Sequence record: OP870145.1
Origin: Escherichia phage vB_Eco_F26
Strand: one strand, 5' to 3'
DNA: 64,000 bases
In this document: positions 1,997 through 20,474 of the stretch, piece after piece
Layout: each line of letters starts with the position of its first letter
Position numbering within the stretch: position 1 is the stretch's first letter
Position numbers and translations under genes: made by a program
Notes under the pieces: generated by a model
The model's input: the letters and a program-made list of their open reading frames with translations, nothing else
Databases searched by the model: none
Told to the model about the DNA's origin: nothing

Positions 1997-5137
<3,141 letters not shown>

Positions 5138-5165: not shown

Positions 5166-7145
5166 ATGACTTTATTATCTCCGGGCATTGAGCTCAAAGA
5201 AACTACGGTTCAAAGCGCCGTGGTTAATAACTCTACTGGTACAGCAGCTTTGGCCGGTAAATTCCAGTGGGGTCCTGCTTTTCAGATTAAACAGGTTACA
5301 AATGAAGTAGATTTAGTTAATACTTTTGGTCAACCAACCGCTGAAACTGCTGACTATTTTATGTCTGCGATGAATTTCTTGCAGTACGGAAATGACTTAC
5401 GAGTAGTTCGTGCTGTTGATAGAGATACCGCTAAAAACTCATCACCAATTGCTGGTAATATTGAATACACAATTTCTACCCCAGGTAGTAACTACGCGGT
5501 TGGAGATAAAATCACGGTCAAATATGTTTCAGACGATATTGAAACTGAAGGTAAAATTACTGAAGTAGACGCAGATGGAAAAATTAAGAAAATTAATATT
5601 CCTACTGCAAAAATTATCGCTAAAGCAAAAGAAGTCGGTGAATATCCAACATTAGGTTCTAACTGGACTGCGGAAATTTCTTCATCTTCCTCTGGTTTAG
5701 CTGCAGTAATAACTCTTGGAAAAATTATTACTGATTCTGGTATTTTATTAGCTGAAATTGAAAATGCTGAAGCTGCTATGACAGCGGTTGACTTTCAAGC
5801 AAATCTTAAAAAATACGGAATTCCAGGAGTAGTAGCGCTTTATCCAGGCGAATTAGGCGATAAAATTGAAATTGAAATCGTATCTAAAGCTGACTATGCA
5901 AAAGGAGCTTCTGCATTACTCCCAATTTATCCAGGTGGTGGTACTCGTGCATCTACTGCCAAAGCAGTGTTTGGATATGGACCACAAACTGATTCACAAT
6001 ACGCTATTATAGTTCGTCGCAATGATGCTATTGTTCAAAGCATTGTTCTTTCAACTAAGCGCGGTGAAAAAGATATTTACGATAGTAACATCTATATCGA
6101 TGACTTTTTCGCAAAAGGTGGTTCAGAATATATTTTTGCAACTGCACAAAACTGGCCAGAAGGCTTCTCTGGAATTTTAACTCTGTCTGGTGGATTATCA
6201 TCAAATGCTGAAGTATCAGCAGGAGATTTGATGGAAGCTTGGGACTTCTTTGCTGACCGTGAATCCGTTGATGTTCAACTGTTTATTGCGGGTTCTTGTG
6301 CCGGTGAATCTTTAGAAACAGCATCTACTGTCCAAAAACACGTCGTTTCAATTGGGGATGCTCGCCAAGATTGCTTAGTATTGTGCTCTCCTCCGCGTGA
6401 AACTGTAGTTGGAATTCCTGTAACTCGTGCTGTTGATAACTTAGTCAATTGGAGAACCGCAACAGGTTCATACACTGATAATAACTTTAATATCAGTTCA
6501 ACCTACGCAGCAATTGATGGTAACTACAAGTATCAGTATGACAAATATAATGATGTGAATCGTTGGGTTCCATTAGCAGCTGATATTGCTGGTTTATGCG
6601 CAAGAACTGATAACGTATCTCAGACTTGGATGTCTCCAGCTGGTTATAATCGTGGTCAGATTCTTAACGTTATTAAACTGGCTATTGAAACTCGCCAGGC
6701 TCAGCGCGACCGTTTATACCAAGAAGCTATCAACCCAGTAACTGGTACAGGTGGCGATGGTTACGTATTGTATGGTGATAAAACAGCTACTTCTGTTCCT
6801 TCTCCATTTGATCGTATTAACGTTCGTCGTCTGTTTAATATGTTGAAAACGAATATCGGACGTAGTTCAAAATATCGTTTGTTCGAATTAAACAACGCGT
6901 TTACTCGTTCATCATTCCGCACAGAAACTGCCCAATACTTGCAGGGAATTAAAGCTCTCGGTGGAATTTATGAATATCGTGTAGTTTGCGATACAACAAA
7001 TAATACTCCGTCAGTAATTGATAGAAATGAGTTTGTTGCAACATTCTACATCCAACCGGCTAGAAGCATTAACTACATTACCTTAAACTTCGTAGCAACT
7101 GCTACTGGTGCAGATTTCGATGAGTTAACTGGTCTTGCTGGTTAA
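5166..7145 (+). CDS. 18: tail sheath protein gp18
   Basis: 659 aa as T4 gp18; late promoter and SD upstream. Confidence 0.9.
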   Translation: MTLLSPGIELKETTVQSAVVNNSTGTAALAGKFQWGPAFQIKQVTNEVDLVNTFGQPTAETADYFMSAMNFLQYGNDLRVVRAVDRDTAKNSSPIAGNIEYTISTPGSNYAVGDKITVKYVSDDIETEGKITEVDADGKIKKINIPTAKIIAKAKEVGEYPTLGSNWTAEISSSSSGLAAVITLGKIITDSGILLAEIENAEAAMTAVDFQANLKKYGIPGVVALYPGELGDKIEIEIVSKADYAKGASALLPIYPGGGTRASTAKAVFGYGPQTDSQYAIIVRRNDAIVQSIVLSTKRGEKDIYDSNIYIDDFFAKGGSEYIFATAQNWPEGFSGILTLSGGLSSNAEVSAGDLMEAWDFFADRESVDVQLFIAGSCAGESLETASTVQKHVVSIGDARQDCLVLCSPPRETVVGIPVTRAVDNLVNWRTATGSYTDNNFNISSTYAAIDGNYKYQYDKYNDVNRWVPLAADIAGLCARTDNVSQTWMSPAGYNRGQILNVIKLAIETRQAQRDRLYQEAINPVTGTGGDGYVLYGDKTATSVPSPFDRINVRRLFNMLKTNIGRSSKYRLFELNNAFTRSSFRTETAQYLQGIKALGGIYEYRVVCDTTNNTPSVIDRNEFVATFYIQPARSINYITLNFVATATGADFDELTGLAG

Positions 7146-13220: not shown

Positions 13221-14504
13221 ATGGCTAAAATCAACGAACTTCTGCGCGAATCAACCACAACGAATAGCAACTCAATCGGTCGCCCAAATCTCGTTGCTTT
13301 GACTCGCGCTACCACTAAATTAATATATTCTGACATTGTAGCAACGCAGAGAACTAATCAACCTGTTGCTGCTTTTTATGGTATCAAATACCTTAACCCA
13401 GACAATGAATTTACATTTAAAACTGGTGCTACTTATGCTGGCGAAGCTGGATATGTAGACCGAGAACAAATCACAGAATTAACAGAAGAGTCTAAATTAA
13501 CTCTCAATAAAGGCGATTTATTCAAATATAATAATATCGTTTATAAAGTATTAGAAGATACACCATTTGCTGATATTGAAGAAAGTGATTTAGAATTAGC
13601 TCTTCAGATTGCAATTGTTCTTTTAAAGGTTCGTCTATTTTCTGATGCTGCAGTAACAAGCAAATTTGAAAGCTCTGATAGTGAAATTGCGGATGCTAGA
13701 TTCCAGATTAATAAATGGCAAACCGCAGTTAAATCTCGCAAACTTAAAACTGGTATCACAGTTGAATTAGCACAAGATTTAGAAGCAAATGGATTCGATG
13801 CTCCTAATTTCTTGGAAGATTTGCTTGCAACTGAAATGGCAGATGAAATCAATAAAGATATTCTGCAATCTTTGATCACAGTGTCAAAACGCTATAAAGT
13901 TACAGGAATTACTGATAGTGGATTCATCGATTTGAGTTATGCATCTGCACCTGAAGCTGGTCGTTCATTATACCGAATGGTATGTGAAATGGTTTCACAT
14001 ATCCAAAAAGAATCAACTTATACAGCAACGTTCTGTGTTGCTTCAGCTCGTGCTGCTGCGATTCTTGCTGCATCAGGTTGGTTAAAACATAAACCGGAAG
14101 ATGATAAATATCTTTCACAAAATGCCTACGGGTTCTTAGCTAATGGTTTACCGCTTTATTGCGATACTAACAGCCCATTAGATTATGTAATCGTTGGTGT
14201 AGTAGAAAATATCGGTGAAAAAGAAATTGTTGGATCAATTTTCTATGCTCCGTATACAGAAGGTCTCGACTTAGATGACCCTGAACATGTAGGTGCGTTT
14301 AAAGTTGTTGTTGATCCAGAAAGCTTACAGCCGTCTATCGGTTTATTAGTTAGATATGCTTTATCAGCAAATCCTTATACCGTAGCAAAAGATGAAAAAG
14401 AAGCAAGAGTAATTGATGGTGGAGACATGGATAAAATGGCGGGTCGTTCAGATTTGTCTGTTTTATTAGGTGTTAAGCTACCAAAAATTATCATTGATGA
14501 ATAA
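13221..14504 (+). CDS. 24: capsid vertex protein gp24
   Basis: 427 aa as T4 gp24; late promoter upstream. Confidence 0.9.
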   Translation: MAKINELLRESTTTNSNSIGRPNLVALTRATTKLIYSDIVATQRTNQPVAAFYGIKYLNPDNEFTFKTGATYAGEAGYVDREQITELTEESKLTLNKGDLFKYNNIVYKVLEDTPFADIEESDLELALQIAIVLLKVRLFSDAAVTSKFESSDSEIADARFQINKWQTAVKSRKLKTGITVELAQDLEANGFDAPNFLEDLLATEMADEINKDILQSLITVSKRYKVTGITDSGFIDLSYASAPEAGRSLYRMVCEMVSHIQKESTYTATFCVASARAAAILAASGWLKHKPEDDKYLSQNAYGFLANGLPLYCDTNSPLDYVIVGVVENIGEKEIVGSIFYAPYTEGLDLDDPEHVGAFKVVVDPESLQPSIGLLVRYALSANPYTVAKDEKEARVIDGGDMDKMAGRSDLSVLLGVKLPKIIIDE

Positions 14505-14507
14505 AAC

Positions 14508-14533
14508 AAAGGGACCTTTCGGTCCCTTTTTAT
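14508..14533. terminator. bidirectional hairpin terminator between convergent genes 24 and rnlB
   Basis: AAAGGGACC-TTTC-GGTCCCTTT palindrome flanked by A/T runs. Confidence 0.7.
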
Positions 14534-15538
14534 TTAACTTACCAATTCAATCCAAGCCGGACGAAGTACATCTTGTACCATTTTAACTAATTCCTTTTTA
14601 ATCAAAGAAGGATTATCCGCTTGAGTTAGAGTAATACCTTCACGAGAAGTTTCTTCCAAAATATCTTGAACAGTTAGCCCCATCACCTTTCCAAAATCCT
14701 TTGGACCAATTTCGCCAATTTTAGAAATAACGTTATTTACTCGGTTCAGTGTAACGTAACAAGCTAAAATCCCCACCAATTTGTTATCAGCTTCTGACAG
14801 TTCAACTTTAGCTTTAATAGGCTTATCAGACTTTTTCTTTTCACTAAATTTGGAATTCTTGCATTTAATCGCTACACGATTGCGATTAGGCAGCCAAGAA
14901 GGATAACAAGGTTTCAATACATATCCTTCAGCAGTAAATACTTCGCCTTTTGCTTCGGCATTCCAGACGCATTTATTTGCATCAACTAACCCAGCATGGT
15001 CTACTGTAAAATTATAATCTTGGACGACAGAATCTAAATCATTTGGCAATTTAATAAGATCTTCAAATTTACCACGACCCAAAAGTGGAGCGATTTTAAA
15101 CCCAAATGAATTACAAAACGATTCCATCATGTAATCATCAACATAAGTTACATCACCACTTTCTGTAGTGACAATAATGTCAAATACATAAAAATCTTTA
15201 TCGCCATAATCGACATTCTTCTGAATGCCAGGTCCAGCGAATTCGCCAAAGACTTGATAAGATACAACCGCTGAGGTTTCCATAATATCTTGTACTGCTT
15301 TAATAGAATCTTCGTAATTCTTTAGAATAATTTCATACCCAAAGAAATCTTCAGCAGGAAGAATTGGTCCAGTACGTTTAGCGCAAGTTACTTTATCACG
15401 CTCAATAATCAATGAGAAATTTGTGCCGTGAATCTTTTCACGAGCTACCCACTCCCCACCAGTCAATCCCAAGCTATAAAGTTTTTCAATAAATTTAGAG
15501 TTGTAATGATTTTCAAGACTGCTATACTTTTTAAACAT
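14534..15538 (-). CDS. rnlB: RNA ligase 2
   Basis: 334 aa; nucleotidyltransferase KxHG motif (REKIHGTNF); T4 position after gene 24. Confidence 0.8.
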
Positions 15539-15547
15539 AATTAATCC

Positions 15548-15826
15548 TCAAAATGTAATTTCTAACCAATCACCATCACGCTGATCACTATTGACTTTAA
15601 AGCTGAATCCTTCTTTTCTCAGCCAATCACCAATTTCTTCAGTAATCAATTTATCACGAGCAATACAATAATAATTAAAATGTGTTTTACCTTGTTCAGC
15701 TGCTTTATTAGCAAGTTCCGAAAAATCTTTAATAAAACACTCTAGCTTAAACTGTTTACTTTTTAATGCTTTTTCGCGCAATTGATTAGCAAAAGATTCA
15801 TTTTCATAAAGATCATACTGTTCCAT
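15548..15826 (-). CDS. hypothetical protein (24.2-like)
   Basis: 92 aa ORF, compact spacing; synteny. Confidence 0.45.
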   Translation of the reverse strand: MEQYDLYENESFANQLREKALKSKQFKLECFIKDFSELANKAAEQGKTHFNYYCIARDKLITEEIGDWLRKEGFSFKVNSDQRDGDWLEITF

Positions 15827-16028
15827 TTTTCACCTTTTTATTGATATGTCTTTTTCTATAGACAACTTTTTCTCGAGTCTCAAATTTATTCTTAGCAGTC
15901 ATAGCTCGAGCCCATAATACAGCCACTTCTTTTGCCTGTAAGTTCAATTCACGAGCAATTTCAATGAATGACTTTCCAGACTCATGAAGCGTAAACACCA
16001 CAACCTCAGTTCTCATAATTAATCTCAT
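15813..16028 (-). CDS. hypothetical protein (24.3-like)
   Basis: 71 aa ORF overlapping downstream ORF start. Confidence 0.4.
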   Translation of the reverse strand: MRLIMRTEVVVFTLHESGKSFIEIARELNLQAKEVAVLWARAMTAKNKFETREKVVYRKRHINKKVKNGTV

Positions 16029-16093
16029 GTTATCGAGTTGGTGCCATTATATACATCATTTTCTGATTGTGTTTTGCGTGCTTTCAAAATGAA

Positions 16094-16113
16094 GAAAGGG
16101 GCCGAAGCCCCTT
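16094..16113 (-). terminator. rho-independent terminator after hoc
   Basis: GGGGC-CGAA-GCCCC hairpin with T-run in - strand direction. Confidence 0.6.
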
Positions 16114-16117
16114 ATGA

Positions 16118-17533
16118 TTATGGATAGGTATAGATGATACCAGTTTCTAAAGCAGTTTTATGAATGATGTATCCATTACGCGATTCTTGGACATCAACTT
16201 CTGGATAGTCTTTAATCATCTTCTGAAGAGTGTAACGATGCAGGTAGTATTTACTATCTGGGTCGTCAGTTTTCCAATCTTTACCTTCTTCGGTCATTTT
16301 TTGGATTTCATCCATAACCCACCAACCGCACCAGATATAAGCTGAAGTACGATGTGGAAGAGGATGAACATAAGGTAGTTCACCTTCTGGTTCAATTGGA
16401 GTCCGTTCAGCAATAACAACTTCAGCTGTTGAACTAATTGTCTTTGAAGTGTAATTATCTTTAGTTAATACTGCTTCAACTTTAATTGTATGAGTACCCG
16501 CTGAGGAGGTATCAATACTATAAGTATTAGTAGAATTACTTTCTGCTACGTTGTCTTTCTTCCAAGAGTACACAATATTAGTATCACCAGGAGCACCAGT
16601 AACAGATGCTGTTAAAGTTGCAGTTCCACCAACAGTAGTATTAACTGATGGCGGAGATAAAGAAATGGTGGCACTATTAAATGTCGCATTATTAGTTACT
16701 ACTGTTGCTTCTGCTGAAATTTCTTTTGTAACATAATTTGTTGCAGAAACAGATGCGGTGCATTTAAGAGTTTTACTTCCGACTTCGGTCGGAGTGAATT
16801 TATACGTAGCAGAAGTTGCATCCGGAATATTACTGTCATCCATTGACCATTGGAATGTTATAGTAGCACCTGAAGGTGCACTAGAGACATTTGCAGTTAA
16901 AGTAATAGGAACACCAAAGACTGTAGTCGGAGACTCGGGTGTAATTTTTAGCGTCGAAGAATTAGCCTTTTTATTTACAGTCAAAGAAACCGCTGATGAT
17001 TCTACTGTTTTATCAACGTAATCAGTTGCAGTCACTGTGACAGAGCAAGTTATAGACTTAGTTCCTTCAGTTGTTGGTGTATATTCAAAGGTTGATTGCT
17101 TTTGACCGTCAACATCGACCCCGTCAACTTTCCATGTATAATCAATAGCAGCACCAATAGGTTGATTGCTTACATTAGCAGTGAATGTTGTTGCTGTTCC
17201 AATTTCTACTGCCGCAGGAGAAGCCGGAGTAACAGTGATAGTGGAATTATTTTCTTTCTTATTAACAGTGATAGTTGTTGATGCTTCAGCTATTTCCGGA
17301 TCTCCTGCGGAAAGTGTATTAGTTGCAACCACTTTAATTTTTTTTGTTCCTGCTGGAGAAGCAAGAGTATAATCCATTGTAGCAGCCGTAGAGCCCTGTG
17401 TTATATCATCTACAGTCCAGACGTATGTAATAGTACCGTCTGGGGTTTCACCTGCAGGTGTAGCAGTGAATGTTTGTGAACCTCCAATAACCCCTGTAGG
17501 AGTTAGAGGAGATAACGTGACAGTGAATGCCAT
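16118..17533 (-). CDS. hoc: highly immunogenic outer capsid protein Hoc with four Ig-like repeats
   Basis: 471 aa; four ~90-aa Thr/Ser-rich Ig-like modules then a distinct C-terminal domain (YVHPLP...WCGWWVMDE); position between 24.3 and inh. Confidence 0.8.
   Translation of the reverse strand: MAFTVTLSPLTPTGVIGGSQTFTATPAGETPDGTITYVWTVDDITQGSTAATMDYTLASPAGTKKIKVVATNTLSAGDPEIAEASTTITVNKKENNSTITVTPASPAAVEIGTATTFTANVSNQPIGAAIDYTWKVDGVDVDGQKQSTFEYTPTTEGTKSITCSVTVTATDYVDKTVESSAVSLTVNKKANSSTLKITPESPTTVFGVPITLTANVSSAPSGATITFQWSMDDSNIPDATSATYKFTPTEVGSKTLKCTASVSATNYVTKEISAEATVVTNNATFNSATISLSPPSVNTTVGGTATLTASVTGAPGDTNIVYSWKKDNVAESNSTNTYSIDTSSAGTHTIKVEAVLTKDNYTSKTISSTAEVVIAERTPIEPEGELPYVHPLPHRTSAYIWCGWWVMDEIQKMTEEGKDWKTDDPDSKYYLHRYTLQKMIKDYPEVDVQESRNGYIIHKTALETGIIYTYP
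16400..17500 (-). repeat. tandem Ig-like domain-coding repeats within hoc (four units, approximate extent)
   Basis: Recurring ~90-aa protein modules (...TFTA.../...YTWKVDG.../...ITFQWSMDD.../...IVYSWKKDN...). Confidence 0.6.
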
Positions 17534-17542
17534 AAGTTATCC

Positions 17543-18223
17543 TTATTTTAATGTTATGAAAGAAGAATTACGAGTTTCGCGAATTAGAACTGATCCATCG
17601 CGATTAATATAATAAATTAAGCTAAATAATGTTTGGTGTGCTGACGCATGTTCAAAACTAGTTGGGTGAGATTTCCAATCCGGAGTTTCAGCAATCCATT
17701 GATAAATCCACCAAGGAACAGTGCAGAATCCTGGATTTTTTCCAATCAGTTGAAGATTCGGACTAAAGTTTTCCGGAAGAGTAAATACAGACGGCTTTTC
17801 AGATTCAATAATCTCAGCTACAGCTTGTTCAAACTTTTCTTCAACAAACGGAGTGTCTTCAATCAAAACTGAGGTATTTTCAGGAATTTTATCCGTTTCT
17901 ACTACTTCAATTTTAATGTCAGATTTAACCGGAGAATCAATCAAAAGTGCTGCTTCTGGATTGACTTCTTCATCGTCATATTTTAATCCCTCTGCGGCAT
18001 CAGCAGCATCAATTAAGTCTTTAATAGATAACCCATCAGTCTCCGGCATAGGTTCACTAGCGAGCTTCTGGAGGGCTTCTTCAATATCAACAACGATATT
18101 ATCAAAAGATTTATTCTTTTTGACTTTTATACCAAACTGTTCAGCATATTCAGCTAATTTAGCTTTAGCTTCTTTATTATCATCAAGAGCCTTCAGCTCT
18201 GCAATATAATCTTTATCTATCAT
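17543..18223 (-). CDS. inh: inhibitor of prohead protease Inh
   Basis: 226 aa as T4 Inh; synteny. Confidence 0.7.
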   Translation of the reverse strand: MIDKDYIAELKALDDNKEAKAKLAEYAEQFGIKVKKNKSFDNIVVDIEEALQKLASEPMPETDGLSIKDLIDAADAAEGLKYDDEEVNPEAALLIDSPVKSDIKIEVVETDKIPENTSVLIEDTPFVEEKFEQAVAEIIESEKPSVFTLPENFSPNLQLIGKNPGFCTVPWWIYQWIAETPDWKSHPTSFEHASAHQTLFSLIYYINRDGSVLIRETRNSSFITLK

Positions 18224-18236
18224 AATATTTCCTCAG

Positions 18237-18244
18237 TATAAATA
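18237..18244 (+). promoter_or_regulatory. late promoter (TATAAATA) for uvsW
   Basis: Exact TATAAATA ~30 nt upstream of uvsW ATG. Confidence 0.65.
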
Positions 18245-18273
18245 TAGATATATTTATTACATGGTATTTAGAC

Positions 18274-19785
18274 ATGACTGACATTAAAGTACATTTTTAT
18301 GATTTTAGTCACGTGAGAATTGATTGTGAAGAAAGCACATTTCATGAACTCCGTGATTTCTTTAGCTTTGAAGCTGATGGGTATCGTTTTAACCCTCGCT
18401 TCAGATATGGCAACTGGGATGGACGAATCCGTCTTTTAGATTATAATCGTCTTCTTCCATTCGGTTTAGTCGGGCAAATTAAAAAGTTCTGTGATAACTT
18501 TGGCTATAAAGCCTGGATTGACCCACAGATTAACGAAAAAGAAGAATTATCAAGAAAAGATTTTGATGAATGGCTTTCTAAATTAGAAATCTATTCAGGA
18601 AATAAAAGAATTGAACCACACTGGTATCAAAAAGATGCAGTGTTCGAAGGATTAGTTAATCGTCGTAGAATTCTTAATCTTCCAACATCTGCAGGTAAAT
18701 CGTTAATTCAAGCTCTGCTTGCTCGGTATTATTTGGAAAATTATGAAGGTAAAATTCTTATCATTGTTCCAACAACTGCTCTAACAACTCAGATGGCTGA
18801 TGACTTCGTTGACTATCGTTTATTCAGTCATGCAATGATAAAGAAAATTGGTGGCGGAGCATCAAAAGATGATAAATATAAAAATGATGCACCAGTCGTT
18901 GTTGGTACATGGCAAACTGTAGTAAAACAACCGAAAGAATGGTTCTCACAGTTTGGAATGATGATGAATGATGAATGCCATCTTGCTACAGGAAAAAGTA
19001 TTTCATCTATCATATCAGGTTTAAATAACTGCATGTTTAAATTTGGTCTATCAGGTTCATTACGTGACGGCAAAGCCAATATCATGCAGTATGTTGGAAT
19101 GTTTGGTGAAATATTTAAGCCAGTAACGACCTCTAAATTAATGGAAGATGGACAAGTAACTGAGTTAAAAATTAATAGTATTTTTCTTCGCTATCCCGAT
19201 GAGTTCACTACTAAATTAAAGGGAAAAACTTACCAAGAAGAAATAAAAATTATTACTGGGCTCAGTAAAAGAAATAAATGGATCGCTAAATTAGCTATTA
19301 AGCTTGCACAAAAAGATGAAAACGCTTTTGTCATGTTTAAACATGTATCGCATGGTAAAGCTATTTTCGATTTAATTAAAAATGAATACGATAAAGTTTA
19401 TTACGTATCAGGGGAAGTTGATACCGAAACCCGCAACGTAATGAAAACCTTAGCTGAAAATGGTAAAGGAATAATTATAGTAGCTAGTTATGGTGTATTT
19501 TCTACTGGTATTTCAGTTAAAAATCTGCATCATGTTGTTTTAGCGCACGGCGTTAAATCAAAAATCATTGTATTACAAACAATCGGTCGTGTATTACGTA
19601 AGCATGGTTCTAAGACAATCGCAACTGTCTGGGACCTCATAGATGACGCGGGCGTGGTTTCTAAATCAAAAACATCTTCTAAAAAATACTCGCATTTAAA
19701 CTATCTTTTAAAACATGGACTTGATCGTATTCAGCGTTATGCTGATGAAAAGTTTAATTATGTGATGAAAGAGGTTAAACTTTGA
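18274..19785 (+). CDS. uvsW: UvsW DNA/RNA helicase (SF2)
   Basis: 503 aa; helicase motifs PTSAGKS and DECH; late promoter upstream. Confidence 0.85.
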   Translation: MTDIKVHFYDFSHVRIDCEESTFHELRDFFSFEADGYRFNPRFRYGNWDGRIRLLDYNRLLPFGLVGQIKKFCDNFGYKAWIDPQINEKEELSRKDFDEWLSKLEIYSGNKRIEPHWYQKDAVFEGLVNRRRILNLPTSAGKSLIQALLARYYLENYEGKILIIVPTTALTTQMADDFVDYRLFSHAMIKKIGGGASKDDKYKNDAPVVVGTWQTVVKQPKEWFSQFGMMMNDECHLATGKSISSIISGLNNCMFKFGLSGSLRDGKANIMQYVGMFGEIFKPVTTSKLMEDGQVTELKINSIFLRYPDEFTTKLKGKTYQEEIKIITGLSKRNKWIAKLAIKLAQKDENAFVMFKHVSHGKAIFDLIKNEYDKVYYVSGEVDTETRNVMKTLAENGKGIIIVASYGVFSTGISVKNLHHVVLAHGVKSKIIVLQTIGRVLRKHGSKTIATVWDLIDDAGVVSKSKTSSKKYSHLNYLLKHGLDRIQRYADEKFNYVMKEVKL

Positions 19786-20474
19786 ATTATAAATTAATAT
19801 ATGATAATTTAATTAATAGAGCCCAGAATCGGGCTCGCCTTAATGGATACACTGAAACACATCATATAATTCCTAGATGTATGGGTGGTACAAATGATAA
19901 GTGTAATTTAGTAGAACTAACGGCTGAAGAACATTTTATAGCCCATAAACTTTTAGCTAAAATTCATCCAAATCATTACGGTATAATTAAAGCCGTTATA
20001 TGTATGGGAATGAACTCAAAGACTCATGAAAGACACGTTAATAAATCTTACGCGTGGGAACGTCGTAAAATGGCAGAACTTCAATCCGGCGAAGGTAATC
20101 CATTTTACGGAAAACACCATACGGAAGAACATAAACAATATATGTCAAAACTCATGAAAAGTCGTCCAATTACATGGGGAAATAAAATTAGTAAAACTAA
20201 AAGAATGAACCCAACGAAATGGACTGAAGAAGCTAAAAGATTACATTCAATCAATCAATCGGGTAAAAATAACGGCATGTATGGAAGGAAACATTCCGCT
20301 AAATCTATTCAGAAAATTAAAGATAACATGCCAGATAATTCAGGAGCTAATAACCCAGCTGCTAAACCTATAGAAGTAAATGGTGTTAAATATAAATGTA
20401 TGAAAGATGCTTCTAAAGCTACTGGATTATCAATGTACAAACTAAGAATACTTAGAAAAACAGTTAATTTATAA
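19782..20474 (+). CDS. free-standing HNH homing endonuclease (Mob-like)
   Basis: TTG start overlapping uvsW stop (TTGA) with AGAGG SD; motif YTETHHIIPRCMGG..N..EHFIAH; paralog of ORFs 371..1183 and 47929..48639. Confidence 0.8.
   Translation: MNYKLIYDNLINRAQNRARLNGYTETHHIIPRCMGGTNDKCNLVELTAEEHFIAHKLLAKIHPNHYGIIKAVICMGMNSKTHERHVNKSYAWERRKMAELQSGEGNPFYGKHHTEEHKQYMSKLMKSRPITWGNKISKTKRMNPTKWTEEAKRLHSINQSGKNNGMYGRKHSAKSIQKIKDNMPDNSGANNPAAKPIEVNGVKYKCMKDASKATGLSMYKLRILRKTVNL

Follow-up and report, generated by a model that had tools for sequence, protein, structure and literature searches.

An RB69-type Hoc with four predicted Ig-like modules in a T4-like Escherichia phage

Hoc is a non-essential decoration fibre of the outer capsid. 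In T4-type phages it is bound as a monomer at the centres of gp23 hexamers, with 155 copies per prolate head, and its Ig domains are credited with weak adhesion to glycans of mucin or to the surfaces of bacteria. It is the scaffold normally used in T4-based phage display and vaccine studies, as well as a model for 'bacteriophage adherence to mucus'. The 64,000 nucleotides of Escherichia phage vB_Eco_F26 analysed here (sequence record OP870145.1; hereafter the window) contain a 471-codon reading frame in which an earlier note, made from the sequence alone, had recognised a Hoc with four Ig-like modules where the Hoc of T4 has three. The locus raises the questions of whether the additional stretch is a complete module, where that module came from, and what a fourth module would mean for the capsid surface.

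The hoc coding sequence lies at 16118..17533 on the - strand and is a single, uninterrupted ORF in the ORF list, with an ATG start, 471 codons and a TAA stop at 16118-16120. Direct reading of the sequence locates a Shine-Dalgarno element, AAGGA (17540..17544, - strand), 6 nt 5' of the ATG, where it overlaps the inh stop codon, and an intrinsic terminator at 16086..16113 (- strand), composed of an AAGGGGC-TTCG-GCCCCTT stem-loop and a T-rich tract. This stem-loop, just 3' of the hoc stop, is the annotated rho-independent terminator in phage vB_EcoM_DalCa (DalCa). A consensus search for the late promoter TATAAATA gave no match on the - strand from hoc to 20979, and none directly upstream of hoc or inh; the sole nearby match to TATAAATA, at 18237-18244, is on the + strand and precedes uvsW. 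On the strand of hoc, rnlB (334 aa), 24.2 and 24.3 lie downstream and inh lies upstream, while uvsW diverges past inh. When the window ORFs are compared with annotations, the order rnlB-24.2-24.3-hoc-inh-uvsW is common to the window, T4, RB69 and DalCa, and the gene occupies the conserved head-region position of T-even phages, 24 - rnlB - 24.2 - 24.3 - hoc - inh - uvsW. The product has a pI of 4.72, as compared with 4.74 for T4 Hoc, and falls in the acidic range (pI ~4-5); acidity is a noted property of Hoc (PMC10385173).

Some neighbours of hoc have peculiarities of their own. The rnlB gene (RNA ligase 2) is intact in the window (14534-15538), a single ORF of 334 aa, unlike in DalCa, where two CDS of 849 nt and 150 nt are annotated (DalCa 5996-7000); a frameshift, a stop codon or a sequencing error in DalCa may account for the split. 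Within the 24.3/24.2 region, a 60-nt block (15844-15903) is 47% identical to T4 amid a stretch of 97-100% identity and represents a small local indel or replacement, and the 24.3 ORF of the window encodes 71 aa, whereas its T4 counterpart measures 171 nt (56 codons). Two homing endonuclease genes are present in the T4 record, segD (562-1233) between genes 23 and 24, and segE (6058-6675) between inh and uvsW. Because only ~50 nt (18224-18273) separate inh and uvsW in the window, segE is absent there. Between uvsW and uvsW.1, a 230-aa ORF (19782-20474, + strand) combines an HNH-like motif (HHIIPR...N...H) with a pair of NUMOD3 motifs (Pfam PF07460, E=7e-14), and probably encodes a homing endonuclease of the free-standing kind. 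DalCa and RB69 lack this segment at the corresponding site, with zero identity over window positions ~19790-20390.

In addition to the ORF and the gene order, two kinds of match bear out the earlier naming of the 471-aa product as the outer capsid decoration protein Hoc. PHROG 1149, 'Hoc-like head decoration', matches the protein with E=1e-135, and T4 Hoc (5vf3_Z, 376 aa) is its only strong PDB-sequence match by phmmer (E=5.9e-141). The latter alignment falls into two blocks, in which query residues 1-190 correspond to T4 residues 1-190, and 289-471 to 194-376, leaving query residues 191-288 (~98 aa) without a counterpart in T4 Hoc. The capsid-binding C-terminus, said in the earlier note to be conserved, has indeed scarcely changed: residues 379-471 (16121..16399, - strand) align to T4 Hoc 284-376, and over the last 94 residues the two proteins differ at 2 positions only, T396/S and I440/M. 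PHROG 21694 matches this domain (E=1e-41), and almost all of its columns, including W401, W404 and W405, are invariant in 45 homologues. Searched alone, the domain matched no Pfam family. In the full-length AlphaFold2 model it is of low confidence (pLDDT 32-53), probably due to the invariant alignment there; its fold is therefore assigned only by its sequence identity to the corresponding domain of T4 Hoc, the structure of which has been determined by cryo-EM on the T4 capsid (PMC10385173). Taken with the module architecture set out below, the ORF can be identified with high confidence as hoc, the outer-capsid decoration fibre of a T4-like phage (Tequatrovirus), in an RB69-type allele with the order D1-D2-Dx-D3 followed by the capsid-binding domain.

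All four Ig-like modules are encoded consecutively on the - strand. D1 (residues 1-92; 17258..17533) is matched by a repeat HMM at 1-93 and is modelled by AlphaFold2 as a beta-sandwich with a pLDDT of 85-93; D2 (residues 93-189; 16967..17257) is matched at 95-189 and reaches a pLDDT of 93-96. The extra module, Dx (residues 190-285; 16679..16966), absent from T4 Hoc, is matched at 191-284, and D3 (residues 286-378; 16400..16678) is matched at 286-378 and by Pfam Ig_3 and I-set. T4 Hoc (376 aa; PDB 5VF3, 8T1X), which occupies the same locus and has a near-identical C-terminal domain, lacks Dx and so comprises three Ig modules. Its D1, D2 and D3 are orthologous to those of the window protein, but the shared modules are only ~44-66% identical: D1 is 59-66% identical to T4 D1, D2 groups with T4-type D2 at 51-59%, and D3 aligns to T4 D3 (T4 residue 194 onward) at 44-51%. 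Within the window protein, the four modules align in register with invariant T6, P11, G19, T23, T25, A26, I37, W41, D44, T55 and G64, and are 33-40% identical to one another.

As the HMM derives from these four modules themselves, the E-values of its four non-overlapping matches (1-93, 95-189, 191-284 and 286-378; 1e-37 to 1e-40) are circular. Its independent result comes from the relatives, where it found 3 modules in proteins of 375-379 aa, 4 in those of 468-472 aa and 5 in those of 567-570 aa. The full-length AlphaFold2 model, based on a 45-sequence alignment, contains four beta-sandwich blocks (pLDDT ~85-96) with strands at 4-91, 98-187, 194-281 and 289-375, and the top PDB matches of Foldseek are four-Ig fragments, namely Dscam1 Ig1-4 (N-terminal), ICAM-5 D1-D4 and Sidekick-2 Ig1-4. 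The N-terminal part of the protein is a linear string of Ig-like beta-sandwich domains, as is characteristic of Hoc. Dx modelled alone (residues 189-288) yielded seven strands with a pLDDT of 91.1 and a pTM of 0.80, and is predicted to form a complete Ig-like fold.

Pfam domain prediction, which the earlier note had proposed as a check, was also run. Searched as a whole, the protein passes for Ig_3, PKD and I-set. In single-module searches, the matches of D2, Dx and D3 stay below the gathering thresholds (PKD or Ig; the PKD match of D2 is weak, E=1e-4), and D1 alone has no Pfam match. Pfam alone undercounts the modules, and an internal HMM together with structure prediction is needed.

The allele itself is not new. 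A megablast search against 50,697 phage records returned 674 matching records, in 30 of which the match spans 80% or more of the gene. The hoc genes of DalCa (GenBank and RefSeq), Paracelsus, PYps35T and HEMP5, five records in all, show no DNA difference from the 1416 nt of the window gene; four of the five are annotated as a head or capsid (Hoc-type) protein, and HEMP5 is unannotated. The gene is 99.5-99.9% identical in a15, Pinarejo, PTE-Eco15 and ES19/ES21, and 95-97% identical in RB69, in O157 typing phages 3, 6 and 13, in phiC120 and in others. For hundreds of further T4-like phages, megablast aligned only query positions 1141-1416, the 3' end of hoc. The Hoc of RB69 (NP_861884, Mosigvirus) has the same 471 aa, the same D1-D2-Dx-D3-C architecture and the same position between inh and 24.3, with 17 amino-acid differences and 96.1% DNA identity. 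We found no explicit published statement that RB69 Hoc has four Ig domains; its annotation and length are public.

Moreover, module number is known to vary among Hoc proteins. Some 650 homologues with strings of Ig-like domains have been described (Fokine et al. 2023, PMC10385173), ranging from ten domains in a 1174-aa protein of Serratia phage Muldoon, which also has a 314-aa homologue with two, to a single domain in the 233-aa homologue of Enterobacter phage PG7. A variant without domain 3, that of PhiPNJ-9, has been characterised experimentally (PMC11853027). The Hocs of Muldoon, PG7 and PhiPNJ-9 resemble that of the window in joining a conserved capsid-binding domain to a variable number of Ig modules, but their sequences are distant. 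RB49 Hoc (PDB 3SHS) has three N-terminal Ig domains and is matched by Foldseek (E=3e-10) at a sequence identity of ~15-19%. Outside the Hoc family, pb10 of T5 (PDB 5LXK) is likewise a decoration protein of the hexamer centre with an Ig-like domain, to which Dx residues 208-280 gave a weak phmmer match (E=0.028); it differs in having a single Ig domain and an unrelated capsid-binding domain. Among the best 120 protein clusters (90% identity) plus the window protein, three modules were counted in 80, four in 32 and five in 9. Twenty IMG/VR loci found through the C-terminal domain have 1, 2, 3 (the majority), 4 (three loci) or at least 5 modules, the last in a single 1107-aa protein. This Hoc-like protein (UViG_2706796453, match 4501-4761) has the conserved C-terminal domain and at least five modules by the window-derived HMM; its residues ~306-744 have no HMM match and may hold divergent Ig modules or another domain. 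A four-Ig hoc of this kind is thus already known: the allele is deposited as Hoc, RB69 carries the 471-aa form, and variation in Ig number is published.

These data bear on two readings under which the fourth module would not be real. One allows the protein no more than three genuine Ig domains and takes the additional ~95 residues for a linker, or for a degenerate remnant that does not fold, the very outcome that the earlier note had named as fatal to its count. The sub-threshold single-module Pfam matches of D2, Dx and D3, and the lack of any for D1, fit such a reading, but the HMM and the predicted structures give four modules, Dx included when it is modelled on its own, and we therefore reject it as most improbable. 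The two-block T4 alignment, the repeat HMM, AlphaFold2 and Foldseek all uphold the earlier claim of four modules against the three of T4. The other reading, by which the 471-aa ORF is an artefact of assembly or annotation, such as a fusion of two hoc alleles or a mis-assembled repeat, is even less credible and has practically no standing. Nothing specific speaks for it beyond the general proneness of repeat-containing genes to mis-assembly, whereas the repeats of hoc are too divergent in DNA to cause mis-assembly, and the same gene recurs identically in independent entries, with wide coverage in 30 records that include the RB69 reference genome.

If the four-module form is accepted, its distribution between genera calls for explanation, as the window hoc and its flanking genes do not resemble the same relatives. 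Over the span compared (14400-16383 and 17524-18273 as flanks around 16384-17523), the Ig array forms an RB69-like, that is Mosigvirus-like, cassette at 16384..17523 (- strand), in which identity per 60-nt window is 93-100% with RB69 and 0-82% with T4. Its neighbours rnlB, 24.2, 24.3 and inh resemble T4 more than RB69: most of their sequence is 87-100% identical to T4, apart from a single 60-nt block at 47%, and identity to RB69 is 30-93%, mostly below 85%. On either side of the cassette there is an arm conserved in both phages, each a candidate recombination junction: upstream, the 5' end of hoc with the 3' end of inh (17524..17700, - strand), 87-98% identical to both T4 and RB69; and downstream, the part of hoc coding for the capsid-binding domain (16118..16383, - strand), 92-100% identical to T4 and 93-98% to RB69. 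Carriers of the cassette belong to two genera, with DalCa and PYps35T in Tequatrovirus, and RB69, O157 typing phage 3 and phiC120 in Mosigvirus. By sequence comparison, the Ig cassette appears common to Mosigvirus (the RB69 group) and one Tequatrovirus lineage (DalCa, Paracelsus, PYps35T and the window), and this pattern suggests that it was exchanged between the two genera through the conserved arms. Presumably, a fairly recent homologous recombination in the two arms would have swapped the cassette, its direction and mechanism being inferred. Part of the 96% identity to RB69 could be due to selection instead of a recent transfer, but synonymous differences are also few: with 55 nucleotide differences from RB69, 37 of the 471 codons have synonymous changes and 17 have non-synonymous ones.

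Single modules seem to be exchanged as well. A 376-aa Hoc (P0011) combines RB69-type D1-D2 with T4-type D3, and a 472-aa Hoc (P0013) has T4-type D1-D2, RB69-type D2 and T4-type D3. In a 567-aa Hoc (P0002), T4-type D1-D2 precedes RB69-type D2-Dx-D3, and in a 379-aa Hoc (P0004) a T4-type D2-like module precedes Dx-D3. Such mosaics indicate that modules also recombine at conserved linkers of the VSLTVNKK type.

As to the origin of Dx, it is 39-40% identical to D2 and 33-36% identical to the other modules of the window protein. Its best matches outside the RB69-type allele, by tblastn, are the D2 modules of T4-type Hocs, at 41-48% identity. A module tree (NJ, distance-based, midpoint-rooted, without bootstrap) recovered the clades D1, D2 and D3 and placed Dx as sister to the whole D2 clade, T4-type and RB69-type together. 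A different situation prevails in the 472-aa and 568-aa Hocs (e.g. vB_EcoM_G10400, BF15 and UGKSEcP1), which have 4 or 5 Ig modules with the same C-terminal domain and locus and are only 55-60% identical overall to the window protein. Their extra modules are ~79% identical to D2 and nest inside T4-type D2 in the tree; the window Hoc, whose extra module is no such tandem copy, falls outside this class.

Two accounts of Dx have to be weighed. It could be a recent in-frame tandem duplicate of D2 that arose through unequal recombination, like the extra modules of the 472-aa and 568-aa classes. D2 is its closest module within the protein, it adjoins the D2 clade, the extra modules of those two classes are D2 copies, and a recent copy that evolved fast would agree with a tree that is midpoint-rooted and without bootstrap. 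Against this account, D2 and Dx are only 39-40% identical; Tandem Repeats Finder detected no tandem repeat in hoc DNA, and a direct-repeat search of the gene found nothing longer than 32 nt, only chance-like matches of 16-32 nt; Dx branches outside both the T4-type and the RB69-type D2 groups; and there are no Dx relatives of the intermediate 60-95% identity in 664 phage records. Recent duplication is accordingly very unlikely, although not so remote as a misread linker. Because of the low identity to D2, the lack of a DNA repeat and the branching outside the D2 clade, Dx appears instead to be an old paralogue of the D2 family, and the four-module state seems to have arisen at least twice, through an old paralogue here and through recent D2 duplication in the 472-aa class. 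An old Dx would also agree with a further possibility, namely that four modules are ancestral and that the Hoc of T4 came down to three through deletion of Dx. Provided that the tree is correctly rooted, D2 and Dx separated before the T4-type and RB69-type alleles diverged, and the occurrence of 1, 2, 3, 4 and at least 5 modules across Hoc lineages implies that gains and losses are frequent (PMC10385173, PMC11853027). The same topology, however, would be given by rate acceleration in Dx on a distance-based, unsupported, midpoint-rooted tree, and no outgroup Hoc with a Dx orthologue was found, the best outside matches being those to D2 mentioned above. We regard an ancestral four-module Hoc as possible but doubtful.

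On balance, and with some reserve, we lean towards a history in which the Ig array is an exchangeable cassette that moves between T-even genera via the two arms, with its modules reshuffled at the linkers, the four-module state gained on at least two occasions, and T4 Hoc maybe a deletion derivative.

By homology to T4, the C-terminal domain would attach a single Hoc molecule to every gp23 hexamer, at its centre, and the four acidic Ig beta-sandwiches would project outward from it as a linear, flexible fibre. The three-Ig fibre of T4 measures ~180 Å (~18 nm) (PMC10385173), and that of the window phage would exceed it by about one Ig module, or ~40 Å (~4 nm), given typical Ig dimensions. Dx would further present one additional, sequence-distinct adhesive surface. 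In the translation, D2 ends in VSLTVNKK and retains S183-L184-T185, the tripeptide reported to contact MUC2 in domain 2 of PhiPNJ-9 Hoc (PMC11853027); the equivalent strand of Dx differs, reading ATVVTNN. The experimental MUC2-binding data are those on the PhiPNJ-9 protein. A longer reach or an altered adherence to mucus may follow from the fourth Ig module.

The window hoc brings no new protein, fold or mechanism, its sequence being in GenBank under several phages, and the points on cassette exchange and independent origin add modest value only. Nonetheless, module number and identity could alter the reach of the fibre, its antigenicity and its binding to mucin, so that the RB69-type four-module allele matters for the choice of a Hoc scaffold and for comparing mucus adhesion among therapeutic T4-like phages. 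The window hoc would illustrate clearly how an Ig cassette can be exchanged across genera and, if the history favoured here is true, the capsid surface would be open to rapid tuning through the number and identity of its Ig modules.
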